From Phascolarctobacterium sp. (lineage in GTDB: Bacteria; Bacillota; Negativicutes; Acidaminococcales; Acidaminococcaceae): a stretch of 64,000 nt of DNA. The DNA is taken from positions 177 to 64,176 of the forward strand of contig JBJDXD010000026.1 in the NCBI GenBank assembly GCA_051866495.1, given 5' to 3'. Of the stretch, positions 1,515 to 62,605 are shown one piece after another. The notes under the pieces are model-generated. The model saw only the letters and a list, made by a program, of their open reading frames with translations, did no database searches and had not been told where the DNA came from. The position numbers and the translations under genes were made by a program. Numbering within the stretch: the first letter of the stretch is position 1; every line of letters begins with the position of its first letter.

Positions 1515-3620
1515 TTAATTCTTTTGCCATACCCTTTGCAGAGTTTTGTACAGCACATCTATATAAAGGGGCTTTGCAATATGCCCATTCATACCGTTTT
1601 GCAGCGCCCGCTCCTTGTCCTCTTCAAAGGCGTTGGCCGTCATTGCCAAAATCGGCAGCGTGGTAACATCCTTACGGGGCAAATGGCGCATGGCCTTGGT
1701 AGCCTCATAGCCATCCATAATGGGCATTTGGATATCCATCAGCACCAGGTCGTAATAATACTCCGGCCTAGCCTTAAGCATCTCCACTGCCACGGAGCCA
1801 TCGGCAGCCTCCTCCACGGTAAAGCCCGCTCTGGACAAAATCTCGTAGGCGATTTCTCGATTGAGCTCGTTGTCCTCTACTACAAGCACCCGCTTACCCT
1901 CAAAGGTAATGGGCTTTTCTTCAGCCTTCTTTTCGGGCACAATGCCACGGCAGGCTCTGGCGGTTTCCAGCAGCACATTGCGCAGGTCGGACATAAAGAG
2001 GGGCTTATTGCAGAAGCCAGTTACCCCGGCCTCCCGCGCCTCCTGCTCAATATCCGTCCAGTCATAGGCCGTCAGGATAATAATGGGCGCCTCGTTACCA
2101 ATCACCCGACGAATGCGGCGCGCTGTTTCAATGCCATCCATCTGGGGCATCATCCAGTCAATAATATAGCTGTAAAAGGAATCCCCATCGTTATGAGCCT
2201 TTTGGGCACGGAATACAGCCTCGCGGCCGGAGGTAGTCCATTCGGAGCGCATACCGATTTGCCCCAGCATCTTGGTGACGCTGTCGCAGGTTTGGAAGTC
2301 GTCGTCGACTACCAGAGCACGTAAGCCCTCCAGCTCCACCATGTCCTCTTTCTTGCGGACTACACTACTCAAGGCGAAATCAAAGCCCACGGTAAAGGTC
2401 GTACCCTTTTTGAGCTGGCTTTGTACGGCGATGGTACCGCCCATCATATCCACCGTATGCTTAGTAATGGTCATGCCCAGGCCCGTGCCCTCGATGCCGC
2501 TGACGGTAGCAGTATTTTCTCGCTCAAAGGGGTCAAAGAGATGCTTCAAAAACGCCTCGCTCATACCGATGCCGCTATCGCGAATAATGAAATCATAATG
2601 GGCATAGCCGGGCTTTTTCGAAGCCTCCTGACGGATAGTGAAGGACACTACGCCGCCAATAGGGGTAAATTTAGCTGCGTTGCTCAAAATATTGATGAGC
2701 ACCTGATCTAGACGCAGGGGATCGAAAATCAGCTCCTCGTCCTCCACGTCAATAGTATCCACATAAAACTCCAAGCGCTTGGCGCGCATCTGGGGCCGTA
2801 TCATATTCACCAGATTATGAACCCGTTCGGATAGATTGCATTCCTTTTCCTGAATGACGATCTTACCGCTTTCAATGCGGCTCATGTTCAAAATATCGTT
2901 AATGAGGCTCAGCAAATGGTTGCTGGAGCTCATGATTTTTTCTAAGCAGTCCTGCACTCTTTCCTTGTTATCTAAATGGCTGGCCGCGATACTAGTGAAG
3001 CCGATTATAGCGTTCAAGGGCGTGCGGATATCGTGGCTCATATTAGACAGGAAGGTGGTTTTGGCCTTGGAGGCATGCTCCGCCTCGGCTAGGGCATCGT
3101 GCAAAAGCTGCTGCTGCTTCATCTCGTTGAGCACATCATTATCGGCGTCCCGCACTGCGAAAACCGCCGTAAAATTGTCCTCGTCCATATGCATGCGCAG
3201 GATGCGCCATTCGCCGTAGCCATAATCAACGCTATCGGGCAGGGCCCTACGACGGGCCCGCACCACGAAGGACGGCTCCCGCCGCAAAACACGGCGAATA
3301 TTTTCGATGCTGGTATCCCGCAGCAGCCTCTCCTGATCATCGGGATGGACAAAGCGCTGGATATAGCCGCGTATAGCCTCCGTATAGTCCATTTCCAAAA
3401 GGCCATCCATGGTTATAGCAGCACGGTTATGGTCATCACGCTGCAAATAAAAGACATTTTTATTCAAGTCCACCCGCCAGAGAGCATAATAATCCTGGCT
3501 CAGAGCGTAGACAGTTTCCTGCAGGGCCTCGGACTTTTGGCGTAATTCTTCCACATTAGAGCGCAGCTGCTCTAGGGTGGTAGCCCATTCTGTTCCCTTC
3601 GGTGTATTTTCGATCATCAT
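1515..3620 (-). CDS. Hybrid sensor histidine kinase (PAS-like input, HisKA, HATPase, two receiver domains)
   Basis: H-box FLSNMSHDIRTP, N-box NILSNAAKFT, G-boxes DSGIGM and GTGLGM, receivers IIDWMMP and LMDIQMP. Start set at ATG 3620 behind a GAGGAG RBS; the ORF track starts at 3644. Confidence 0.93.
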   Translation of the reverse strand: MMIENTPKGTEWATTLEQLRSNVEELRQKSEALQETVYALSQDYYALWRVDLNKNVFYLQRDDHNRAAITMDGLLEMDYTEAIRGYIQRFVHPDDQERLLRDTSIENIRRVLRREPSFVVRARRRALPDSVDYGYGEWRILRMHMDEDNFTAVFAVRDADNDVLNEMKQQQLLHDALAEAEHASKAKTTFLSNMSHDIRTPLNAIIGFTSIAASHLDNKERVQDCLEKIMSSSNHLLSLINDILNMSRIESGKIVIQEKECNLSERVHNLVNMIRPQMRAKRLEFYVDTIDVEDEELIFDPLRLDQVLINILSNAAKFTPIGGVVSFTIRQEASKKPGYAHYDFIIRDSGIGMSEAFLKHLFDPFERENTATVSGIEGTGLGMTITKHTVDMMGGTIAVQSQLKKGTTFTVGFDFALSSVVRKKEDMVELEGLRALVVDDDFQTCDSVTKMLGQIGMRSEWTTSGREAVFRAQKAHNDGDSFYSYIIDWMMPQMDGIETARRIRRVIGNEAPIIILTAYDWTDIEQEAREAGVTGFCNKPLFMSDLRNVLLETARACRGIVPEKKAEEKPITFEGKRVLVVEDNELNREIAYEILSRAGFTVEEAADGSVAVEMLKARPEYYYDLVLMDIQMPIMDGYEATKAMRHLPRKDVTTLPILAMTANAFEEDKERALQNGMNGHIAKPLYIDVLYKTLQRVWQKN

Positions 3621-3636
3621 AAATCTCCTCTTAAGC

Positions 3637-6474
3637 TTAACCACACAGCTGGGCCAGCAGCCCCATCAGCTTATCGATATCGATGGGCTTGGCCATATGG
3701 GCATTCATGCCCACCTCTAAGCAATGCTGCATATCCTCGGCAAAGGCGTCCGCCGTCATGGCGATAATGGGCAGCTTGGCATCCTCCCTGTCCAAGGCAC
3801 GAATCGCCTTGGTTGCCTCGTAGCCATTCATCACCGGCATCCGCAAATCCATCAGCACAGCCCGGTAGTACCCCACAGCAGCTGCTTTAAATTTATCCAC
3901 ACAGATTTGGCCATTTTCAGCCGCATCCACTAAAATCCCTTTACGCTTGAGCAGAGCAACGGCAATCTCCCGATTGAGCTCGTTATCCTCTGCCAAAAGC
4001 ACCCTGAGCCCTTCTAAATGCACCTCTGGCTTGGCCACCGGGGCCTTTTTCTCGGCGCAGCGATATCCGCGCTCCACATCCAGCACAATCTTAAACTCAG
4101 TGCCCCTATTGGGCTCGCTGCACACGGTAATGCTGCCGTCCATAGCGTCAATAATATATTTTGTAATGGCCATACCTAGGCCAGTACCCTCAATCTTTTG
4201 CACGCGGCGAGTGTCCTCGCGGGCGAAGGATTCAAAGATATGCTTTACAAAATCCTCCGTCATGCCAATGCCATTATCCTTCACACCAAAGTGCAGGCGC
4301 ACCATGTTGTCGCCCTTGGGAGAAGCCTCCTCGCGCAGGGAAAACTCCACCCTGCCGCCCTCAGGGGTAAATTTAACAGCATTGCCCAAAAGGTTCAAAA
4401 GCACCTGATGCAAACGCACGCCGTCGCTATAAATGCCGGCACAATTAAGCTTGTCCACATTTAGCACCAGCTCCTGATGCTTGCCCTCAAGCTGTCCCTG
4501 CATGGTGGTCACAATATTATTCACCAATTGCTTGAGGGATACATGCTCACGATGCAGCACCAGCTTGCCTGCTTCAATCTTGGACATATCCAGCACGTTA
4601 TTGATGAGCCCCAAAAGATGCTTGCTGGAAATAACGATTTTATCCAGGCAATCCTTGAGCTCCGCCGGATTATTGATATTATTCATAGCAATGTTGGTCA
4701 TGCCCATAATGGCATTCATAGGCGTGCGAATATCGTGGCTCACATTGGACAAAAACTCGCTCTTGGCCTTGTTAGCGCGCTCCGCCTCTAAAAGGGCTGC
4801 CTCCAGGGCCTCCTTGCTGCGACGCTCCGCCTCCACGGAGGCAGTAATATCCGTGCGGGCCATGCACACCCTGCCTAAGCGCATATCGATGGCAGTTACG
4901 GTAACCACCTTCACCTTAGGCGGAAAATTTTCGTTTTTATAAACAGAATAAGTGAAGCTATAGCTATCCTTATCCTTAAGCTGCTCGGCAATATATTCGG
5001 GATTGAGCTTGCTGAGCCACAGCTCCCTATCCTCCGGCACCACATGGCGTTCTAGGGCACCCTTTAAAAAGTCCTGGTACGCCACACGGCGACCGATCAA
5101 GGTACCATGAATCTTGCCCGCATAAAGCACCGTGCGAGTGCCATGGAGCAAATCTATATCGGTAATTCTATCCGCGCCCAAGACGGACATTTTGCGAACA
5201 ATTTTACGATTGATATACTGCTCTGTGGCATCCACAATGGATAATACACCCATGATATCATCCGTATCAGGGTTTTGCATCATGGTTACTTTAAACTGGG
5301 CGTAGCGACCATATTCCTCTAAGGGACTCTTCACAAAATAGGTATGGCTAACCTCGCGTTGACCCTGAGCATATTTTTCTAATAAGGGTGCTTTTAAGGC
5401 AAAGCTCAAAAATTCCTTTTGCTCCTTAGCATCCACAATAAATTGGCTTATAAAGCGCACGAAGGTTTCCTGCTCGTCCCCCAGCTTACTGAGCAAATCC
5501 TTGTCCTGATTGTCCACAACCTCAAGCATTTTATTTTGGGAAATATTGCAGTGTCCCACCAGGAGCATATCATGTCCCAGTCCATAGTAGCTGGAGGCCA
5601 GCAGCTCACGGTATTTGTTCCTTAGCTGCTCTCGCTCTTCTAGCTCCTTAGTAATATCCCGATAAACGCAATAATTGCGGCGCAGACCATCCTCGCTGGT
5701 CATGGTGTTGATGGTGTTGCGCACCCACAGGTAGCTGCCATCAGCATGAATTAGGCGATAGACAAATTCTGCACTTTCCCTTCCACTTTCAATATACATA
5801 TTTAAATCGTGGGCTAGCTGCATGCGGTCGTCGGGATGCACGCCGGTCATAGCATCCTGCTTATACAAAAGCCACACCTGGGGCAGCTCCATGCCAAACA
5901 TAGCGGCAAAGCCCTCGGACATAAACTCCGGCGTCCACACACCCCGCTCGTCGCATTTAATAACAGCCACGCCGCCGGGGATGGTGTTTAAAATATCCTG
6001 CTTTTGCTTATTAGCCATATTTAATTTGGCATAGCCCTGCTGTGTTTCCTTCAGCTTGCCTTCAATATTTTGCTGTATTTGGACTACGTCCGTAATATCC
6101 TGGTGACAGCCGTGTACCCTAAAGCCCTGGGTATATTCCGGGTCTAGGTCGCCGCAGCAGCGAATATACATCAAACCCCGCTCCGGATGCATCCAAGCAT
6201 ATTCAATCTCCGAATGCTCGCCCTGCATCATGTTTTGCATATAGGCTGTTGCACGCTCTTTTTCATAGGAAGGAATATTATCCTCCCACAGCCTATAGCC
6301 CTCCTCCGGCGAAAGCTCCTTGGCGATACCCATCATCTCCAAAAAGGTATCGTCTGCATATAAACGCGGTGGCTTATCCTGGTCATATTCCACACACCAC
6401 AGGCCAATCTTGGCCTCCTGCAGCATGGTATGCACTTCACCAATTTTACTGAAATGCTGGTCCAATCTTCTCAC
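3637..6474 (-). CDS. Multi-PAS hybrid sensor histidine kinase with C-terminal receiver
   Basis: PAS/PAC-like segments (VHPDDR...YRLIHADGSYLWVR), H-box FLSNVSHDIRTP, NLLGNAVKFT, GTGLGM, receiver LMDLRMP. No transmembrane helix is evident. Confidence 0.92.
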   Translation of the reverse strand: MRRLDQHFSKIGEVHTMLQEAKIGLWCVEYDQDKPPRLYADDTFLEMMGIAKELSPEEGYRLWEDNIPSYEKERATAYMQNMMQGEHSEIEYAWMHPERGLMYIRCCGDLDPEYTQGFRVHGCHQDITDVVQIQQNIEGKLKETQQGYAKLNMANKQKQDILNTIPGGVAVIKCDERGVWTPEFMSEGFAAMFGMELPQVWLLYKQDAMTGVHPDDRMQLAHDLNMYIESGRESAEFVYRLIHADGSYLWVRNTINTMTSEDGLRRNYCVYRDITKELEEREQLRNKYRELLASSYYGLGHDMLLVGHCNISQNKMLEVVDNQDKDLLSKLGDEQETFVRFISQFIVDAKEQKEFLSFALKAPLLEKYAQGQREVSHTYFVKSPLEEYGRYAQFKVTMMQNPDTDDIMGVLSIVDATEQYINRKIVRKMSVLGADRITDIDLLHGTRTVLYAGKIHGTLIGRRVAYQDFLKGALERHVVPEDRELWLSKLNPEYIAEQLKDKDSYSFTYSVYKNENFPPKVKVVTVTAIDMRLGRVCMARTDITASVEAERRSKEALEAALLEAERANKAKSEFLSNVSHDIRTPMNAIMGMTNIAMNNINNPAELKDCLDKIVISSKHLLGLINNVLDMSKIEAGKLVLHREHVSLKQLVNNIVTTMQGQLEGKHQELVLNVDKLNCAGIYSDGVRLHQVLLNLLGNAVKFTPEGGRVEFSLREEASPKGDNMVRLHFGVKDNGIGMTEDFVKHIFESFAREDTRRVQKIEGTGLGMAITKYIIDAMDGSITVCSEPNRGTEFKIVLDVERGYRCAEKKAPVAKPEVHLEGLRVLLAEDNELNREIAVALLKRKGILVDAAENGQICVDKFKAAAVGYYRAVLMDLRMPVMNGYEATKAIRALDREDAKLPIIAMTADAFAEDMQHCLEVGMNAHMAKPIDIDKLMGLLAQLCG

Positions 6475-11871: not shown

Positions 11872-12750
11872 TTATTTATTCACGATCTTCCCATAGCACT
11901 CCGGTCTGCGGTCACGGAACAAGCCCCAGCTCAAGCGGTCCTCCGCCAGCTGGTCCAAATCATACTCTGCATAAAGAATTTCTTCCTTATCGCGGCTAGC
12001 ATCCTGAATAAGTGCACCCGTGCCGTCGGTCATAAAGCTAGAGCCATAGAACAAAAGGGAAGACTTTTGCCCAGCATTAGCCTCACAGGGCTCCACACTC
12101 TCAAGGCCAATACGGTTGGCAGCCACCACCGGCATCAGATTAGCCGCACTGTGGCCCTGCATCACGCGACGCCAATGGGGCATACTGTCCGTATCCAAAA
12201 TAGGCTCCGAGCCAATGGCCGTGGGATAAAGCAAAATTTCTGCTCCGTTTAAGGCTAAGCAGCGAGCTGTTTCGCTAAACCATTGATCCCAGCAAATGCC
12301 GATGCCAATTTTTCCAAAGCGGGTGTCGAATACCTTGAAGCCCGTATCACCGGGTTTAAAATAGAATTTTTCCTGATAAAAATGGTCGTCAGGAATATGA
12401 GTCTTGCGATACACGCCCAGATTAGTGCCATCCGCATCAATGCAGGCAATGGAATTATACAGCTGGTTCACATCACGCTCAAAAAAGCTGATGGGCAGCA
12501 CAATTCCCAGCTCCTTCGCCAGTCGCTGACCCATTTGCACAGCCGCATTCTCTGCGGTGGGCTCGGCGTAAGCGTAATACTCATAGCGACGCTCCTGACA
12601 GAAGTAGGGTCGCTCCCACAGCTCCGGCAGCAGCACCAGCTGCGCTCCCTTGCTCGCTGCCTCGCGCACCAGCGCCTCTGCGTGGCGCAAATTATCCTCA
12701 CGGCTCGCAGCGCAGCGCAGCTGCACTGCGGCCACCTTAAGCTTTCTCAT
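11872..12750 (-). CDS. aguB: N-carbamoylputrescine amidase
   Basis: Nitrilase fold: LLPELW, YRKTHIPDD, GICWDQWFSE. Start at ATG 12750 overlaps the aguA stop (ATGA), with GGAGG upstream. Confidence 0.93.
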   Translation of the reverse strand: MRKLKVAAVQLRCAASREDNLRHAEALVREAASKGAQLVLLPELWERPYFCQERRYEYYAYAEPTAENAAVQMGQRLAKELGIVLPISFFERDVNQLYNSIACIDADGTNLGVYRKTHIPDDHFYQEKFYFKPGDTGFKVFDTRFGKIGIGICWDQWFSETARCLALNGAEILLYPTAIGSEPILDTDSMPHWRRVMQGHSAANLMPVVAANRIGLESVEPCEANAGQKSSLLFYGSSFMTDGTGALIQDASRDKEEILYAEYDLDQLAEDRLSWGLFRDRRPECYGKIVNK

Positions 12751-13946
12751 AAGCATCCTCCCTTCGGGATTTGCTGGGTAATGCAGTGAATATTGCCGCC
12801 CCCCGTCAAGATAGCTCTTGCCGGTATTTGCACCACCTTGCGCTCCGGGCAAAGCGCGGCCAGAAGGGCCGCCGCGCGCCCGTCGCTGGCTGCATTTGCA
12901 CCGCCGAAGGCGGGCAGCACCACACTGTCATTACTAAAATAAAAATTCACATAGCTTGCTGCCAGCCTTTCGCCGGCCTCACGCATATCCTCGCCTTCCA
13001 CAAAGTCGAAGCCTGCCACCTCCTCTTCCGTGATGCACACTGGCACATCCGGAATGGGCAGCTTATGGACGACGATTTTGCGTCCCTTGGCATCGGTGAC
13101 CTGCTCCAAATAATCAAGACTGGCCTTGCTCAAAGCGTACTGAGGGTCATCCTCCTTATCGGTCCAAGCCAAAACCACCTCGCCGGGACGAATAAAGGCG
13201 CACACATTATCAACGTGCTCATTGGTCTCGTCGTTGTAAATGCCACGAGGTAACCACAGCACCTTTTCCACATTGAGATATTCCTTGAGCTTTGCTTCAA
13301 TCTGGGCTTGGGTCAAATTGGGATTGCGGCCGGCGCTGAGCAAGCAGGACGCAGTCACCATGGCCGTGCCCTCGCCGTCCACATGAATGGAGCCGCCCTC
13401 TAAAACAAAGGGTGCTGCCTCGTACAAAGCATAGCCCTTTTGCGCTGCAAAAGCGGCGGCAAAGGCATCATCCTGCTCATAGTCAGGATAAAGGCCATCT
13501 ACCTCGCCACCCCAAGCGTTAAAGCGCCAGTTCACGCCCCGCACTTCTCGCCGGGCTCCCCTAGCGCAGCTGCCTACGGCAGCATCAGCTTGAGCTTCAG
13601 AGCCTTCCTCACAGGGCACATCCTTCACGACAAAGGTAGGCCCTATATCCCTAGCCCAGCTGTCGTCCGTAGCAATATCCAAAAGCTCCACATTGGCAAG
13701 GCCCGCTAGCATTTGCTCAGCCCGCTCCCAATGCTTGCTCCTTTTATCGCAAGCCACATACACCCTTTCGCTGGCGCTGATGGCCTTAATCACGGCCGTA
13801 AAGGCCGCGCAGGCGGCCTCCGCCCCAAAGCTCCAGGAGCCGGGGCGCTGGGGCCACACAATGATGCAGCCCTCGTGCTGTTCGTACTCCGCCGGCATGC
13901 GAAAGCCGTCCATTTTTGGTGTTGACTGTGTCAGCATCTTCATCAT
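12747..13946 (-). CDS. aguA: Agmatine deiminase
   Basis: FRMPAEYE, DDSWARDIGP, FNAWGG, LEGGSIHVDG, NEHVDN, GGNIHCITQQ. Confidence 0.94.
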   Translation of the reverse strand: MMKMLTQSTPKMDGFRMPAEYEQHEGCIIVWPQRPGSWSFGAEAACAAFTAVIKAISASERVYVACDKRSKHWERAEQMLAGLANVELLDIATDDSWARDIGPTFVVKDVPCEEGSEAQADAAVGSCARGARREVRGVNWRFNAWGGEVDGLYPDYEQDDAFAAAFAAQKGYALYEAAPFVLEGGSIHVDGEGTAMVTASCLLSAGRNPNLTQAQIEAKLKEYLNVEKVLWLPRGIYNDETNEHVDNVCAFIRPGEVVLAWTDKEDDPQYALSKASLDYLEQVTDAKGRKIVVHKLPIPDVPVCITEEEVAGFDFVEGEDMREAGERLAASYVNFYFSNDSVVLPAFGGANAASDGRAAALLAALCPERKVVQIPARAILTGGGNIHCITQQIPKGGCL

Positions 13947-15184
13947 GAAAGTCGTCCTTTGAAATCCTCATAACCAAAACGGCGCACCAGCTCCGTGCTG
14001 CCATCCTTTTTTAGCAGCACAATATCCGGCAGGGGCATGCCGTTAAAGGTATTATTTTTAACCATGGAATAAATGGCCATGTCTTCAAAAATTAGCTTGT
14101 CGCCCACCTTTATTTCCCGCTCAAAGCTGTAATCCCCAATCACATCACCAGCAAGGCAGGTCATGGAGGACAAGCGATAGGTGTGAGCCTTTTCCTTAGC
14201 CTCAAAGCCATCCCGCAGGGGCGGGCGATAGGGCATTTCCAGCACGTCCGGCATATGGCAGGCCGCGGATGCGTCCAAAATTAGAATATCTAGGCCATTA
14301 TGCACAATGTCCAGCACCTCGCTCACAAGATAGCCTGCATTGAGCGCCACGGCTTCGCCGGGCTCCAAATAAACCTCAACGCCATAGGTGCTGCGAATAT
14401 ATTTCACTAAATTAATCAGCGCCTCTACGTCGTAGTCAGCGCGAGTAATATGATGTCCACCACCCAAATTGAGCCATTTTAATTGGCCAAAAAATTTGCC
14501 AAATTTGGTTTCAAAGGCTTTGAAGGTAGTGATTAAATCATCGGAGTTTTGCTCGCAGAGGGTGTGGAAATGCAGTCCCTCCACGCCCTCAGGCAGCTGC
14601 TCAGGGAAATTGGCCAAGGTTACGCCTAGGCGGGAGCCCACGGCACAGGGGTCGTAAATAGCGTGCTCCGCCTCTTGAGTAGAGCATTCAGGATTGATAC
14701 GAATGCCCACGCTGGCCTTGGAGCTTTGCCAAATGCTCCTGTGCTTTTCGAGCTGGGCAATAGAGTTAAAAACGATGTGGTCGCAAATCTGCACCAGCTC
14801 CTGCATGTCCTCGGTGCGAAAGGCAGGGGCGAAAACATGATTTTCCTTGCCCATTTCCTCGTGGCCAAGGCGTGCTTCAAAAATGCCGCTAGCCGTGGTG
14901 CCCGCCAAATACTCGCCCATAAGGGGATAAAGGCGGAACATGGAGAAGCATTTTTGGGCCAGCAGAATATGACAGTCCGCCTCACGCTGCACCCTTTGCA
15001 GCAGCTCCAAATTTTTAATGAGCCTAGCCTCATCCACCACATAACTAGGAGTAGGCAGTGCCTTTAGCACTGCCTCCTGTTTTTCTTTCAATGTTCTTGC
15101 TTGTAAAGCCTGCAGCTTAGCGTCCGCCTTGGCGGCGTCCACCACATAAGCAGGCATATTTTTTGCGTTACTCATGTTGCTCAC
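13943..15184 (-). CDS. nspC: Carboxy(nor)spermidine decarboxylase
   Basis: LLAQKCFS (PLP lysine), GLHFHTLCEQ, NLGGGHHIT, YLEPGEAV, CHMPDVLEMPYRP, TCLAGDVIGDY. Confidence 0.94.
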   Translation of the reverse strand: MSNMSNAKNMPAYVVDAAKADAKLQALQARTLKEKQEAVLKALPTPSYVVDEARLIKNLELLQRVQREADCHILLAQKCFSMFRLYPLMGEYLAGTTASGIFEARLGHEEMGKENHVFAPAFRTEDMQELVQICDHIVFNSIAQLEKHRSIWQSSKASVGIRINPECSTQEAEHAIYDPCAVGSRLGVTLANFPEQLPEGVEGLHFHTLCEQNSDDLITTFKAFETKFGKFFGQLKWLNLGGGHHITRADYDVEALINLVKYIRSTYGVEVYLEPGEAVALNAGYLVSEVLDIVHNGLDILILDASAACHMPDVLEMPYRPPLRDGFEAKEKAHTYRLSSMTCLAGDVIGDYSFEREIKVGDKLIFEDMAIYSMVKNNTFNGMPLPDIVLLKKDGSTELVRRFGYEDFKGRLS

Positions 15185-16449
15185 TCAACGGTAACAGGGT
15201 TTTCGTCCACAACCCAGGGCAGGCCGAACTTGTTCAGCATATCCATGTACGGATCGGGGTCAAACTCCTCTACGTTAAAGACGCCCTTGCCCTGCCATTG
15301 TTTAGTAATAACCAGTGCGGTACCAATCATAGCAGGCACGCCAGTGGTGTAGCTGATGGCTTGGGAGCCAACCTCCTTGTAGCACTCTTGATGGTCGCAA
15401 ACATTATAGATAAAGATGGTCTTCTTTTCGCCGTTCTTGGTGCCGGTGAAAATACAACCGATATTTGTTTTACCAACGGTGCGAGGTCCCAAGGAAGCAG
15501 GATCCGGCAGCAGAGCCTTCAGGAATTGGATGGGCACGATTTCGTGACCCTCGTACATCATGGGCTTGGTGGACAGCATGCCCACATTTTCCAAGCACTT
15601 CATGTGGGTCAGATAGCTTTGGCCAAAGGTCATGAAGAAGCGAATGCGCTTTACGCCGGGGATATTTTTAGCTAGGGATTCAATTTCCTCATGGTGCAAA
15701 AGGTACATATCCTTCATGCCAACTTGAGGGAAATCATATTCGCGTTTAATGGACATAGCGGGAATTTCAATCCACTTGCCGTTTTCCCAATAGGAGCCAG
15801 GGGCAGAAACCTCGCGCAGGTTAATTTCAGGATTGAAATTGGTAGCAAAGGGATAGCCATGGTCGCCACCGTTGCAGTCCAAAATGTCGATGGTATCGAT
15901 TTGGTCAAAATAATGCTTTAGAGCATAAGCAGAGAAAACGCTGGTTACGCCGGGGTCGAAGCCGGTGCCCAAAAGGGCCATAATGCCAGCCTTTTCAAAT
16001 TTTTCCTTATAAGCCCATTGCCAGGAATAGTCGAAGTAGGCAGAGAAGCCCTCCTCCTTGCAGCGCTTGTCATAAACCTCGCGCCAAGCGGGGTCATCAA
16101 TATTTTCGGGCTCATAGTTGGCAGTGTCGATATAGTCAACCTTGCACTCCAGGCAGGCATCCATAATGGTCAAATCCTGATAGGGCAAAGCCACATTCAA
16201 AACAGCATCCGGCTGATAGGCTTTAATTAAAGCAACCAGCTCGTCCTTATTATCTGCGTCCACCTTGGCAGTGGTGATTTTGGTAGTGGTAGTGGGCTGC
16301 AGCTTTGCAGCCACAGCGTCGCATTTGGATTTAGTGCGGCTAGCAATGCACAGCTCGGTAAAAACCTCACTATTTTGGCAGCATTTGGCGATAGCTACGC
16401 CGGCAACACCGCCGCAGCCGATTACTAATAATTTACTCATACTCTTCAT
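15181..16449 (-). CDS. Carboxy(nor)spermidine dehydrogenase (saccharopine dehydrogenase family)
   Basis: VIGCGGVAG Rossmann motif, NVALPYQDLTIMDAC, GFDPGVTS, FATNFNPEINLRE; directly upstream of nspC. Confidence 0.92.
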   Translation of the reverse strand: MKSMSKLLVIGCGGVAGVAIAKCCQNSEVFTELCIASRTKSKCDAVAAKLQPTTTTKITTAKVDADNKDELVALIKAYQPDAVLNVALPYQDLTIMDACLECKVDYIDTANYEPENIDDPAWREVYDKRCKEEGFSAYFDYSWQWAYKEKFEKAGIMALLGTGFDPGVTSVFSAYALKHYFDQIDTIDILDCNGGDHGYPFATNFNPEINLREVSAPGSYWENGKWIEIPAMSIKREYDFPQVGMKDMYLLHHEEIESLAKNIPGVKRIRFFMTFGQSYLTHMKCLENVGMLSTKPMMYEGHEIVPIQFLKALLPDPASLGPRTVGKTNIGCIFTGTKNGEKKTIFIYNVCDHQECYKEVGSQAISYTTGVPAMIGTALVITKQWQGKGVFNVEEFDPDPYMDMLNKFGLPWVVDENPVTVE

Positions 16450-16474
16450 CTCCTATCGAATTATACATTATCCT

Positions 16475-16577
16475 TAAAACAGCTAGAAGGGGTCAGATAC
16501 GCGAAAGGGCGACGACGGCGTACTAGAGGTACGTCTAGGAGCCCTGACAAAGTAGATGGCCCCTTATAGCTGTTTTA
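16475..16577. repeat. Structured intergenic repeat, copy 1 (long multi-stem hairpin)
   Basis: Nested inverted repeats AAAACAGCTA/TAGCTGTTTT, GGGGTCA/TGGCCCC, TAC/GTA, GGGC/GCCC, CGTAC/GTACG; homologous to 17469-17569. Confidence 0.8.
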
Positions 16578-17429
16578 CTTTTCTTCTTCTTCTAGCATAT
16601 CCTCAACATACTTGGGTAGCATAAAGGCTCCCTTATGCAGATTGGCGGAATAATACCAGGTCTTGATGCCCCTTGCCTTCCACTTCACGGGCTCGAAATC
16701 CTTCAAAGGATGGTATTTTTTCGAGGCAAAGCCAAAGAGCCAGTAGCCGGAGGGGCAGGTGGGAATGGCTGCCTGATACACGCGGCTAATGGGAAAGCTG
16801 TGGCTAGCCTTGCGGTGCATGGCACGACAGGTTTCCTCATCCTCATCATAGAAGGGACTGCCATGCTGGTACACCATGATGCCGTCCTCCTTGAGGGCGC
16901 GGAAGCAGTTACCATAAAACTCCTTGGTAAAAAGTCCTGCTGCATGGCCCAAGGGGTCGATGGCATCGTTAATAATCAAATCATATTCATTCACCTTGGA
17001 GCGCAAAAAACGCAAGCCGTTAGCGTTAAAAATCGTTACGCGGGCATCGTCAAGGCCAACGGCGTTGTCGGGGAAAAAGTCACGGCACACATCGATGAAC
17101 ACATGGTCCGTCTCCACAACGTCGATTTCTTCAATCTCAGGATAGCGGGACAGCTCGCGGGCTACACCGCCATCGCCACCGCCGATAACCAGCACCTTTT
17201 TCACATGGGGATGCACGGCCATGGGCACATGCACAATCATCTCGTCATAAATAAATTCGTCCTTTTGGGAAAAGACGATGGTGCCATCGCAGGCGATAAA
17301 GCGACCAAATTCCTTAGAGTCGAAAACGTCAATCCGTTGAAAATCCGTGTCCTCCCCAAATAATTGCTTTTCAATTTTTATATCCAGCTTCACATCATCC
17401 GTGTGGTAATCGGAAAACCAAAGCTCCAT
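16575..17429 (-). CDS. speE: Polyamine aminopropyltransferase (spermidine synthase family)
   Basis: MELWFSD, FIYDEMIVHVPM, VLVIGGGDGG, IINDAIDP. Confidence 0.92.
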   Translation of the reverse strand: MELWFSDYHTDDVKLDIKIEKQLFGEDTDFQRIDVFDSKEFGRFIACDGTIVFSQKDEFIYDEMIVHVPMAVHPHVKKVLVIGGGDGGVARELSRYPEIEEIDVVETDHVFIDVCRDFFPDNAVGLDDARVTIFNANGLRFLRSKVNEYDLIINDAIDPLGHAAGLFTKEFYGNCFRALKEDGIMVYQHGSPFYDEDEETCRAMHRKASHSFPISRVYQAAIPTCPSGYWLFGFASKKYHPLKDFEPVKWKARGIKTWYYSANLHKGAFMLPKYVEDMLEEEEK

Positions 17430-17468
17430 TCCATCACAACCTTACAAACTCTTTTAATCAGCTCAACA

Positions 17469-17569
17469 AGATGTGTCAGAAAGTACCAGATGCGCGAAAC
17501 AGCGACGAAGGCGTACTAGAAGTACGTCTAGGAGCTGTGCCAAAGCAGATGGTGCTTTATCACGCATCT
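17469..17569. repeat. Structured intergenic repeat, copy 2
   Basis: AGATGTG/CGCATCT, AGTACCA/TGGTGCT, TGC/GCA, CAGC/GCTG, CGTAC/GTACG; same loop sequences as copy 1. Confidence 0.8.
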
Positions 17570-19016
17570 ACACAAGTACATTAATATTATTAACCTCAGG
17601 ATCTTCGGGCCCCTGCATAGAGCACCCCTTCTCCTTAGCGTAGATTATGTACTCAATAATCTCCTTAGTAATAACCTCGCCGGGTGCCAAAATAGGAATG
17701 CCCGGAGGATAGCACATTACGAACTCGGAGCAAATTCTGCCCGCCGTCTCCCGAATGGGCAGGGGCTCATCCTTGGCATAAAAGGCCTCCTGGGGCGATA
17801 CAACCACCTGGGGCGCAATATATTCCGTATTCAGCATCTTGGACGGGTCGCGGGAGTATAAGCGTTTAATATCCGCCAATGCACCCACCAAGCGCTCAAT
17901 ATCCTGAATCCTGTCGCCGATGGAGACATAGGCTAGGATATTAGCAATATCGCCAAACTCAATTTGAATATCGTATTCGTCACGAAGCAAATCGTAAACC
18001 TCGATACCGGCCAGACCAATATCGCGAGTATAAACGGAGAGCTTGGTCACGTCAAAATCATAAATGCTGCTACCGTTCTTCAGCTCCTGACCATAGGCAT
18101 AATAGCCGCCGATGGAATTGATTTCCTCGCGAGCGTACTCCGCCATCTCGGCCACCTTGGCAAAGGAGGTTTCTCCCCGCATGTACAGATTACGGCGGGA
18201 AATATCAAGGCTGGAAAGCAACAAATAGGAAGCACTGGTAGTCTGGGTGAGGTTAATAATCTGGCTCACATATTCCCAGTTCACATTGGGACCAGTTAAA
18301 AGCAAGGAGCTCTGGGTGAGACTACCACCGGATTTGTGCATGGAAACGGAGGCCATATCCGCTCCGGCCGCCATAGCATTCACCGGCATATTAGGGCCAA
18401 AGTAAAAATGGGTACCGTGGGCCTCGTCCACCAAGCACAGCATGTTATGAGCATGGGCCAGCTTCACAATGGAGCGCAAATCGGAGCAGATGCCATAATA
18501 GGTAGGATTATTCACCAAAACCGCCTTGGCATCTGGATTGGCCTTGATAGCCTTTTCCACCTCGCTCAGCTCCATACCTAGGGAAATACCCAGCTTGCTA
18601 TCCACCTCAGGGTTAATATATACAGGTATCGCGCCGTTTAAAACCAGCGCGTTAATCACGCTCTTATGCACGTTGCGCGGCAAAATAATCTTATCCCCGG
18701 CCTTGGTGGAAGACAGCACCATGCTTTGCACGGAGGAGGTAGTCCCTCCCACCATAAAAAAGGCATGGGCAGCCCCAAAGGCTTCTGCCGCCAGCTGCTC
18801 CGCATCCCGAATAACCGAAACAGGATGGCATAAATTATCCAAGGGCTTCATGGAATTGACGTCCAAATTGACACATTTTTCTCCAAGAAGCTCCCGCAGC
18901 TCCGGATTGCCACGGCCACGCTTGTGCCCGGGCACATCAAAGGGTACCACGCGCTTTTTACGAAAGGCCTCCAGGGCCTCGTAAATAGGCGCTGATAGTT
19001 GCGAAAGTTTCTCCAT
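17568..19016 (-). CDS. speA: Arginine decarboxylase (Orn/Lys/Arg decarboxylase, fold type I)
   Basis: FDVPGHKRGRG, VGGTTSSVQ, LVDEAHG, VSMHKSGGSLTQSS, YPPGIPILAPGE. Arginine specificity is inferred from the aguA/aguB context. Confidence 0.88.
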   Translation of the reverse strand: MEKLSQLSAPIYEALEAFRKKRVVPFDVPGHKRGRGNPELRELLGEKCVNLDVNSMKPLDNLCHPVSVIRDAEQLAAEAFGAAHAFFMVGGTTSSVQSMVLSSTKAGDKIILPRNVHKSVINALVLNGAIPVYINPEVDSKLGISLGMELSEVEKAIKANPDAKAVLVNNPTYYGICSDLRSIVKLAHAHNMLCLVDEAHGTHFYFGPNMPVNAMAAGADMASVSMHKSGGSLTQSSLLLTGPNVNWEYVSQIINLTQTTSASYLLLSSLDISRRNLYMRGETSFAKVAEMAEYAREEINSIGGYYAYGQELKNGSSIYDFDVTKLSVYTRDIGLAGIEVYDLLRDEYDIQIEFGDIANILAYVSIGDRIQDIERLVGALADIKRLYSRDPSKMLNTEYIAPQVVVSPQEAFYAKDEPLPIRETAGRICSEFVMCYPPGIPILAPGEVITKEIIEYIIYAKEKGCSMQGPEDPEVNNINVLV

Positions 19017-19030
19017 AATCCGTTCTCCCC

Positions 19031-19303
19031 AACAAATAAATAAAAGACAGGTGCGCTAAACATCACCTGTCTTTGATAATTCCCCTACACGTTTTTTTGA
19101 TAGACTACGATTCTTAGGGCGCATCTTACTTTCAGAGTTTGTAAGCAAATACCTTCACTACTCTTATTGACCGTTTCACAAGTGATACTGATTTTGATTG
19201 CTAGCAATCACCTTATAAAATTTGAGCGTGAGCTCAATCAATAATGTGGCCCGAGGCCACTCCGGCAGCAGTCCCGCCTGTCCGTATGGGCTTAACTATT
19301 ATA
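19031..19303 (-). promoter_or_regulatory. Structured 5' leader with terminator/attenuator upstream of the polyamine operon
   Basis: TATAAT at 19303-19298; hairpins at 19246-19260 and 19222-19237; perfect 16-bp palindrome at 19195-19210; 11-bp terminator stem 19043-19053/19064-19074 with a U-rich tail ending about 15 nt before the speA start. Confidence 0.65.
19056..19124 (-). CDS. Putative Arg/Lys-rich leader peptide (MRPKNRSLSKKRVGELSKTGDV)
   Basis: 22-codon ORF whose TAG lies in the loop of the terminator hairpin. The RBS is weak. Confidence 0.35.
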   Translation of the reverse strand: MRPKNRSLSKKRVGELSKTGDV

Positions 19304-19420
19304 AAAATAGTGGACTAATATTTGCATGAAAGCAAGCTGCATTCATGTAATTTTATTGTAGCATTTTTATACTGTTTCAGCAAGGGCTTTAACAAAATAA
19401 AAGGTATTAACCATTCCGTA

Positions 19421-23336: not shown

Positions 23337-23470
23337 GAATTTTGTAACATTTCTCATTATACAGACGAGGGCGTAAATCTTTTTGTAAACATTATAACAA
23401 AAAGTACCATTTTAGGTCCATCCATCCCCGACCTAAAATGGTACTTTAAAAAATTACAAAGAAAGAAAAA

Positions 23471-62377: not shown

Positions 62378-62605
62378 TCATAAAAGTATCACACAAAACA
62401 TAAAGCCAGCGATTTCTCGCTGGCTTTATGCCTTGTGGGGTGCACAATATTCTATTAAACACACCTGACAGAAGAAGGGTGTGCCAATAGCCCTTTGCCA
62501 GCCTGGGCTGGCAAGCTTGGCTAGCAAGCCGGGTTCGGATTAAAAGCTTTGCTAACCACGCTGTTAAGTTTAACACCTTAAGTATCATAAAAGTGTCACA
62601 CAAAA
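62378..62605. repeat. 21-bp direct repeat pair upstream of tpsB
   Basis: TCATAAAAGTATCACACAAAA (62378-62398) and TCATAAAAGTGTCACACAAAA (62585-62605). Confidence 0.75.

Follow-up and report, generated by a model that had tools for sequence, protein, structure and literature searches.

Introduction

Among described intergenic repeats, those that most resemble the elements analyzed here are the REP, BIME and REPIN repeats and the attC sites of integrons. REP-type repeats are numerous imperfect palindromes, often located just after stop codons and clustered, that are thought to be recognized as folded single-stranded DNA (ssDNA), that keep their structure while their sequence drifts, and that are carried passively in mRNAs. 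The attC sites are imperfect hairpins of 60-140 nt that are defined by structure and by unpaired features and not by sequence. They act as a single folded strand of DNA, antisense to the open reading frame (ORF) that precedes it, and in 25 of 30 sedentary integrons this strand is the leading-strand template, a placement that limits attC folding and excision (PMC5371416). We describe here two hairpins that occupy intergenic gaps of a polyamine operon in a 64,000-nt stretch of contig JBJDXD010000026.1 from Phascolarctobacterium sp. (this whole stretch is called the window). Copy A (16476..16576) and copy B (17469..17569), both folding as the plus strand, are members of an undescribed family of ~100-nt intergenic hairpin repeats of Phascolarctobacterium, a gut genus of the Negativicutes. 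This family is large, old and structured, its copies have been gained, lost, duplicated and decayed, and it has no link to polyamines.

Like REP-type repeats, the Phascolarctobacterium copies occupy many intergenic sites, frequently directly after stop codons and in clusters. However, a REP or REPIN is a palindrome of 20-40 nt or an inverted pair of these, whereas the present element is one 101-nt hairpin that comprises five helices and has non-complementary loops of invariant sequence. It also lacks the GTAG/CGTC tag that a REP carries at an end, its clusters are direct tandem arrays with copies co-oriented 8:1 rather than the alternating or inverted units of BIMEs and REPINs, no RAYT gene was seen nearby, and its orientation has a replication polarity of 94%. 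Like attC sites, the elements conserve a hairpin structure together with unpaired features, and the strand that folds runs antisense to the ORF before it and begins at the stop codon of this ORF. As in sedentary arrays, it lies on the leading-strand template. Unlike attC sites, the elements have no RYYYAAC/GTTRRRY core sites at their ends, their conserved loops differ, no integrase or cassette array was seen, and their flanks are syntenic housekeeping operons (speA-speE, ispE-glmU-prs, coaBC-metK).

The Correia/NEMIS, ERIC, RUP, BOX and bcr1 repeats (100-150 nt) are similar in their insertion polymorphism, their long transcribed hairpins, their co-transcription within operons and, in some, a TA duplication. 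Conserved terminal inverted repeats bound these elements, but in the present family it is the interior loops that are conserved and the ends that vary, and we know of no strand-specific wobble excess or replication polarity described for any of them. The ends of IS200/IS605 elements and PATEs share with the present family an orientation tied to replication and a dependence on ssDNA hairpins, which we infer for the latter. They differ in that a TnpA gene accompanies two short subterminal hairpins and the target is a fixed tetra- or pentanucleotide, whereas the flanks of our copies hold no conserved tetranucleotide and no TnpA was seen near them. In addition, the active strand of IS200/IS605 is on the lagging-strand template (PMC6006769), whereas 49 of our 52 sites have the folding strand on the leading-strand template. 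Finally, the third internal loop of the hairpin (loop 3) reads (G)GC-GAC-GA-C / G-GA-GC(C), as in kink-turn (K-turn) RNAs such as ribosomal RNA (rRNA) Kt-7, box C/D RNAs, SAM-I and T-box leaders. Unlike those RNAs the family has no Rfam similarity, the motif is absent from a longer variant of the element, and it is known here from sequence. Overall, the family would appear to be a structured intergenic repeat that lies outside any named family, one that works most like REP/REPIN and attC but fails their defining features. A limited literature search found no description of it, it is absent from Rfam 15, and among the supplement entries listed for a human-microbiome structured-RNA survey the sole Phascolarctobacterium entry is located near tRNA-synthetase genes.

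Results

Both elements belong to a large family with fixed loops and covarying stems

The original prediction held that the window contains two ~100-nt intergenic copies of one element with conserved loops and covarying stems, a description that agrees with our analysis once the boundaries are refined to 101 nt each. The copies are 81% identical over 83-101 nt, a 32-nt core pattern matches the window twice where shuffles give an expectation of 0.00, and a covariance model search of the 64 kb likewise recovers two copies (A with 112.7 and B with 108.1 bits under model R1, 103.1 and 98.4 bits under model R2). The loop sequences are kept between the two copies while their stems change on both sides, with GGGGTCA/TGGCCCC in one copy versus AGTACCA/TGGTGCT in the other, TAC/GTA versus TGC/GCA, and GGGC/GCCC versus CAGC/GCTG. 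The innermost stem, CGTAC/GTACG, is the same in both, and the outermost stems are unrelated in sequence and pair in both.

We also searched a metagenome collection, mostly of human gut origin, with a loop-based pattern and obtained at least 120 loci. The pattern required AGATRC, AC, C.A.GA, A.GYAGATG and TAT, so this sample is biased toward canonical loops. The covariance model confirms ~115 of these loci with scores of 55-108 bits. Among the matches listed, the loci represent at least 120 unique sequences at ~55-60 distinct sites in Phascolarctobacterium contigs, and the covariance model total in contigs of this genus is about 140 copies. Two isolate assemblies contain at least 6-9 copies that are >=80% like one query copy. 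As judged from crude longest-ORF calls, the neighbors are unrelated housekeeping genes that include glmU, glmS, metK, coaBC, gmk, prs, obg, proB, fabH and miaA among others.

The ~110 further copies show the strong covariation anticipated from the two window copies, with G-U exceeding A-C 5:1 on the plus strand. Specifically, in an alignment of 109 distinct copies that was fitted to the covariance model, 92.0% of pair cells are standard pairs, versus 75.8% after shuffling and <=39% with slid partners. Both sides change in 28 of the 36 pairs, and the covariation score of 0.488 compares to 0.182 for shuffles, with none of 500 shuffles scoring as high. A model-free analysis using MAFFT and RNAalifold with one copy per site gave the same helices, with compensatory changes at 24 of 33 pairs. 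Wobble pairs are themselves conserved, as U-G occupies one pair in 74 of the 109 copies and G-U occupies another in 56.

From base to tip the irregular hairpin begins with an outer stem of variable sequence and one G.A mismatch (AGA/UAU), followed by P2, a symmetric GA/GA loop within CAGAUR/YAGAUG, P3, loop 2, P4, an asymmetric loop of GACGAC opposite UAGGA (loop 3), P5 with the conserved sequence GCGUAC/GUACGY, and a variable apical loop. The tandem G.A loop is formed by GA at 16496..16497 opposite GA at 16555-16556 in copy A, and by GA at 17489-17490 opposite GA at 17548-17549 in copy B. Further toward the tip, the GACGA of loop 3 is at 16511..16515 opposite AGGA at 16537-16540 in copy A, and at 17504..17508 opposite AGGA at 17530-17533 in copy B. 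Across the 109 copies the loop positions are 95-100% conserved. In the GA/GA loop (G21 100%, A22 99%, G80 99%, A81 100%) these values are inflated, as the invariance of letters that the search pattern required arises partly by construction. In loop 3 one side has G36 at 95%, A37 at 98%, C38 at 100%, G39 at 95% and A40 at 97%, and the other has A62 at 100%, G63 at 98%, G64 at 96% and A65 at 99%. Letters outside of the pattern requirement, namely G36, G39, A40, G63, A10-A12 and those of P5, are equally conserved. The ends are the most variable part, with positions 1-9 and 93-101 only 30-79% conserved and reading AGRC...GYCT, and the outer stem pairs with a different sequence at nearly every site.

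Loop 3 matches the consensus of a K-turn in having a helix closed by C-G (C-G or U-A across the copies), a 3-nt bulge and tandem G.A/A.G pairs. The assignment is by consensus, and the resemblance to rRNA Kt-7 serves as a lead. An ATG at positions 81-83 is also conserved, and a small ORF starting from it was rejected as the peptides are unrelated between copies.

Presence of the family outside of the genus was also analyzed. In 80 speE loci from other species the element is found in Phascolarctobacterium loci only, and patchily, and 66 polyamine loci from Lachnospiraceae and Oscillospiraceae have none. Weaker relatives are found beyond the genus in Firmicutes-like, higher-G+C contigs of gut bacteria. 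One of these, on a ~60% G+C contig (L205), is a ~50-bit member that abuts the hpt stop codon in antisense orientation. This contig is deposited as GenBank MT837857.1, ‘UNVERIFIED: Bacteriophage sp.’, and encodes hpt, tilS, dnaB, rplI, a DHH-family protein and RNase J, and resembles a fragment of a ~60% G+C bacterial chromosome rather than a phage. Another contig (L207) has one core-only copy, with a match that runs off the 3' end of the locus, and in a G+C-richer contig (L167) the innermost stem is fully covaried. In the latter the hairpin is inside a 275-nt composite palindrome (858-1132) located just upstream of a divergent ABC-2 permease gene, in which 22-nt inverted repeats enclose the element and a second long hairpin (-134 kcal/mol, z -10.5). 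Scans of viral contigs gave, besides the L207 copy, only matches in L201-L204, which were rejected as chance pattern matches. Nucleotide searches with blastn gave no match among plasmids and one match only among phages, which is a mislabelled bacterial contig.

A longer variant of ~120 nt is present at the site downstream of speE in two Phascolarctobacterium loci, L002 and L004 (4855-4976 on the minus strand of each locus). Its start (AGAAG...CCAGAT) and inner stem (GGCGTAC...GTACGTC) are those of the family, one additional helix is present, and the GACGA/AGGA loop is missing. Against the family models the L004 variant scores 22-30 bits, and in L002 only the inner stem is matched (15.7 bits).

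Folding is favored on one strand

As RNA, the plus strand of copy A folds at -52.9 kcal/mol and that of copy B at -44.9 kcal/mol (z -6.2 and -5.0), versus -37.8 and -36.0 kcal/mol (z -2.1 and -0.5) for the minus strand, as expected from the predicted preference for plus-strand folding. The same asymmetry holds throughout the family. On the folding strand, which is the plus strand of the window, there are 370 G-U pairs versus 76 A-C oppositions, and the ratio of the two is 5.0 in copies that are antisense to their neighbors and 6.8 in copies that are sense to them. Dropping the columns that are G-U family-wide leaves an excess of 2.6 and 3.5 to 1, respectively. Relative to its complement, the folding strand has the more stable fold in 108 of 111 copies with RNA parameters (-47.8 versus -32.7 kcal/mol) and in 106 of 111 with DNA parameters (-20.7 versus -15.9).

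One strand of the element is under selection to fold, whether at birth of a copy or in place. Mutation bias was rejected as a cause of the G-T excess, since a C-to-T bias acting on the G-rich strand would tilt the asymmetry the other way. The mRNA strand of antisense copies has 161 C.A mismatches versus 32 G-U pairs. Thus, most host-operon mRNAs carry a poorly pairing complement, which speaks against the hairpin being functional in these transcripts.

Orientation of the copies follows replication

The gene located 3' of the hairpin is on the opposite strand at 42 of 57 sites, and at 29 of these 42 the 3' end of the hairpin comes to within 5 nt of the stop codon of this gene, a distance that is at most 15 nt at 35 of the 42. 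A sense orientation to the next gene was found at ~9 sites, with the element immediately 5' of the ribosome-binding site of that gene, as at glmU (tandem arrays of 1-3 copies), glmS and a serC-like gene.

We assigned leading and lagging strands from GC skew in contigs of 5-15 kb. In a gene-wise regression of GC skew over the 48 loci that have genes on both strands, the coding effect was 0.03 and the replication effect 0.09. By this measure, at 49 of 52 independent sites (94%; binomial p 1e-11) it is the C-rich strand that folds, and this strand is the lagging strand in sequence terms and hence the template of leading-strand synthesis. This placement is observed in every class of site, with 29 of 30 antisense and 6 of 7 sense sites (Fisher p 2e-5) and 14 of 15 others, and the sense copies adjoin genes that are themselves on the lagging strand, as in the ispE-glmU-prs cluster. 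As the leading strand carries only 74% of the coding bases in these loci, being antisense to a gene would not by itself suffice to produce 94%. Copies that are >300 nt apart in one locus are co-oriented 8:1. Overall, the orientation of the elements follows replication and not transcription or the direction of the neighboring gene.

The window obeys this rule, as its GC skew is negative throughout, nearly all of its genes are on the minus strand, and both copies fold as the plus strand. The original prediction that folding is antisense to the operon is therefore correct for these two copies, although this arrangement is a by-product of the replication-tied orientation and not a rule of its own.

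Copies are gained, lost and decayed

Locus L001, from the metagenome-assembled genome SUG3079, encodes a SpeE that is 99% identical to the SpeE of the window, and both sites are empty there. Both are also empty in L006 and L008-L011. The two sites are both occupied in L002 and L005, a single copy is present in each of L004 and L007, L014 has copy A, and a short remnant is left in L003. Compared with the empty allele, the gain at site A is the hairpin alone, and at site B it is the hairpin plus 24 nt on its 5' side (17445..17468, plus strand). This 24-nt stretch, in which CTTTTAATCAGC resembles the family GCTTTATCAGC, is probably what is left of the 3' end of an older copy that has been largely deleted. 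The empty allele of site B was also observed in a contig from a pig-gut metatranscriptome run (X29), where 17444 is joined to 17578 via TACCAAA; strains with and without copy B thus co-exist in pig guts. The copy expands the speA-speE gap from 12 to 138 nt.

Comparison with the empty alleles shows that both window sites are compatible with a duplication of the stop-codon TA. At site B the new stop codon, TAG, comes from the element, and the ancestral TAA is kept 123 nt downstream on the mRNA strand. However, a T precedes the first A at only 6 of 47 sites, so that a TA duplication does not appear to be general across the family. The TA on the 3' side coincides with the stop codon, which confounds its reading. 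A possible copying of the outer stem from the target was rejected, as the empty sites of L001 have no similar sequence.

Many sites have decayed or internally deleted copies located 5' of an intact one. For example, scores in locus L185 climb toward the stop codon from 29.9 to 56.6 to 76.9 bits, and direct tandem arrays with a 129-nt period also occur. In locus L170, a 55-nt derivative (4425-4479) lies directly 5' of an intact copy and has lost everything between two AGATG repeats, which suggests deletion by slippage between the element's own direct repeats.

Copies at different sites are at most ~86% identical (median 69%), which indicates no recent burst. At orthologous sites the diversity of the hairpin often does not exceed that of the coding DNA next to it (nucleotide diversity of 0.006-0.10, the range in 9 of 10 groups, versus 0.02-0.13). 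It is also lower than that of the 5' flank, and the 40 nt upstream are poorly conserved. This suggests that the hairpins are under some constraint in place, a comparison that is blurred by recombination and by alignment gaps.

The polyamine operon and other features of the window

The operon that holds the two copies is on the minus strand of the window, with six genes at 11872-19016 and the elements in two of its intergenic gaps. In the direction of transcription it encodes an Orn/Lys/Arg decarboxylase similar to SpeA (17568..19016; OKR_DC_1, PF01276, 1.7e-68), spermidine synthase SpeE (16575..17429; Spermine_synth, 2.2e-56), a saccharopine-dehydrogenase-type protein (15181-16449), a carboxynorspermidine-decarboxylase-type protein (13943-15184), agmatine deiminase (12747-13946) and a CN-hydrolase (11872-12852). 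As the original prediction noted, each copy touches the stop codon of the gene upstream in the operon, with the last 2 nt of each hairpin overlapping it. The outer stem of copy A overlaps the TAA of speE (16575..16577, minus strand), and in the TAG of the decarboxylase gene (17568..17570, minus strand) the AG comes from the end of copy B.

A recommended comparison with Rfam was made, and no family in Rfam 15 matches the elements, even at E<=10. A scan of the whole window at gathering thresholds returned only the SpF59/ldcC RNA and a tRNA, both elsewhere and none at the elements, and a scan of 16400-17650 at E<=10 returned only an hsp17 thermometer (E=3.1, 18 bits versus a gathering threshold of 45). 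The ldcC/SpF59 motif (RF02440) is located at 19262-19316 on the minus strand, in the leader of the decarboxylase gene, with 58.2 bits versus a gathering threshold of 37.2. The polyamine operon thus already has a recognized candidate cis-regulatory RNA that is unrelated to the repeats.

The elements are also not plain terminators, in agreement with what had been proposed. Neither strand has a consistent U-tract, a terminator scan found none at copy A or copy B, the 3' flanks of the copies are only 40-50% T, and the flanks on the mRNA strand are purine-rich. Intrinsic terminators do occur in the window at 62393-62436 and 23401-23447, where in each case a short hairpin with perfect pairing precedes a run of T on the gene strand. 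Both gave weak, spurious matches to the covariance model and were rejected as family members. No promoter was found upstream of the folding strand in the window, and over 47 flanks upstream of this strand there is only a weak and inconsistent -10-like composition.

Elsewhere in the window a single ORF of 6837 amino acids (38361-58874, minus strand) with many internal DNA repeats (families D1, D4, D8, D14 and D17) probably encodes a giant repeat-rich surface protein. Two adjacent ORFs of 709 and 945 amino acids (1515-6474, minus strand) share DNA segments that are 70-84% identical and spaced 1702-2113 nt apart (families D2, D3, D5, D9 and D18), and are probably tandem paralogues.

Discussion

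The original prediction proposed that structure is under selection and that the elements are either structured RNAs or ssDNA elements. The first part is well supported by the family, and for the second we tentatively favor a REP- or attC-like DNA repeat of which the foldable strand is recognized as folded ssDNA. This repeat option fits best because the orientation tracks replication and not transcription, because no promoter was found in the window and no consistent terminator accompanies the copies, and because the copies behave as repeats. The recognizing factor could be a structure-specific enzyme, for example of the HUH or tyrosine recombinase type, or hairpin-processing nucleases. Copies would persist where their foldable strand is the leading-strand template and hence is rarely single-stranded, whereas copies with the foldable strand on the lagging-strand template would be excised by a dedicated enzyme. 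Alternatively, slippage or hairpin nucleases might remove the wrong-way copies such that only the ‘safe’ orientation persists; orientation-dependent removal is reportedly known for asymmetric palindromes, from work by Trinh and Sinden in 1991 and from work on SbcCD. In leading-strand operons such as speA-speE the mRNA would then merely carry the weaker complementary hairpin between cistrons.

Several observations weigh against this interpretation. The IS200 or RAYT gene to which a linkage had been suggested was not found near any copy examined. As judged by protein clustering only, over the 5-10 kb around the copies, no cluster other than of housekeeping proteins recurs, and neither a recombinase nor a RAYT or transposase was detected. 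IS200/IS605 has the opposite polarity, so the survival-bias step proposed above is needed. The copies are old, with sites <=86% identical (median 69%) and no sign of a recent burst, and the ends of the element are its most variable part, unlike the ends of transposons. A hairpin diversity near the coding level hints at a constraint that is unexpected for a purely selfish repeat. In addition, the match of loop 3 to the K-turn consensus would make it an RNA motif, K-turns depend on 2'-OH contacts, and the asymmetry in strand stability is 3x larger with RNA than with DNA parameters.

These last points are those that a structured RNA family would accommodate, be it free-standing or cis-acting, with K-turn and G.A motifs that bind a common protein, for example of the L7Ae family. 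Such RNAs would be antisense RNAs at gene ends, and 5'-untranslated-region or intercistronic elements where they are sense. This explanation accounts best for the loops and the wobble pairs, given covariation with many G-U pairs that include conserved wobble positions, invariant purine-rich loops, a loop 3 that matches the K-turn consensus and a 15 kcal/mol advantage of the folding strand as RNA. It is also in line with an in-place diversity below that of flanking non-coding DNA, with the ~9 sense sites just upstream of a ribosome-binding site (glmU, glmS, serC-like) and with the occurrence of the repeat core in contigs from RNA runs. However, these contigs are unstranded, break at the repeat core and may contain DNA, and for roughly three quarters of the sites the one transcript in evidence has the complementary sequence. 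Moreover, ~94% of such RNA genes would run head-on to the replication fork, no consistent terminator is present, no promoter-like site is found upstream in the window and the upstream 40 nt are poorly conserved. We regard an RNA family as the main alternative, although a rather unlikely one. A replication-polar structured signal of a new kind appears somewhat less likely again, whether this were a DNA hairpin, mobile or recombinogenic, with a structure-specific enzyme acting at the leading-strand template or nascent lagging strand, or a K-turn RNA family systematically head-on to replication with a host function at dozens of gene boundaries.

The remaining explanations are disfavored more strongly by the strand and distribution data. 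The mRNA processing or stability role that was among the original suggestions fits worst of those, as the mRNA at most copies carries the poorly folding complement. In its REP/ERIC form, an intercistronic hairpin would block exonucleases, be cut by RNase III or stall ribosomes and so tune the relative expression of neighboring genes, with orientation being irrelevant. The location between co-transcribed genes, <=5 nt from a stop codon at 29 of 42 sites, and a complement that still folds (mean ~-33 kcal/mol) suit such a role, and REPs near stop codons reportedly affect upstream gene expression, according to 2015 work by Liang and Deutscher that we take as favoring it. Nevertheless, the 161 C.A versus 32 G-U on the mRNA of antisense copies is the reverse of the expected selection, the orientation is far from random, and a simple barrier needs no invariant internal loops, which together render this role improbable. 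Slightly more improbable still is a conventional miniature inverted-repeat transposable element that is mobilized as double-stranded DNA by a transposase encoded elsewhere, with a TA target duplication. Presence/absence polymorphism, the compatibility of both window sites with TA duplication at the stop codon and the perfect 8-9-nt terminal inverted repeats of copy A agree with such an element. On the other hand, the terminal stems are the most variable so that there are no conserved terminal inverted repeats, a T precedes the first A at 6 of 47 sites only, there are no near-identical copies at different sites, and a double-strand mechanism leaves the strand-specific G-T excess unexplained. 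Finally, the presence of two copies in one operon, at the same two sites in some relatives, could point to a regulator of polyamine genes (riboswitch or attenuator) or to plain intrinsic terminators of speA and speE. We consider this very improbable, as ~55 other sites adjoin unrelated genes, the same operon lacks the elements in the closest relative (L001), as do the 66 Lachnospiraceae and Oscillospiraceae polyamine loci, the operon already has the ldcC/SpF59 leader RNA, and the folding strand is antisense to the operon and without a U-tract.

These results add a well-supported structured repeat family to a common and little-studied gut genus. Its combination of fixed interior loops and variable ends, folding of one strand and 94% replication orientation is one that we have not seen described. 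If the polarity reflects avoidance of hairpins on the lagging-strand template, then the family would be a natural, genome-wide case of an effect that has been demonstrated mainly with engineered palindromes and integron arrays; if it instead reflects an enzyme or an RNA, then a further partner would be implied. In either case, the copies lengthen intercistronic gaps, overlap stop codons and vary by strain, and thus matter for annotation, operon expression and strain typing in Phascolarctobacterium.

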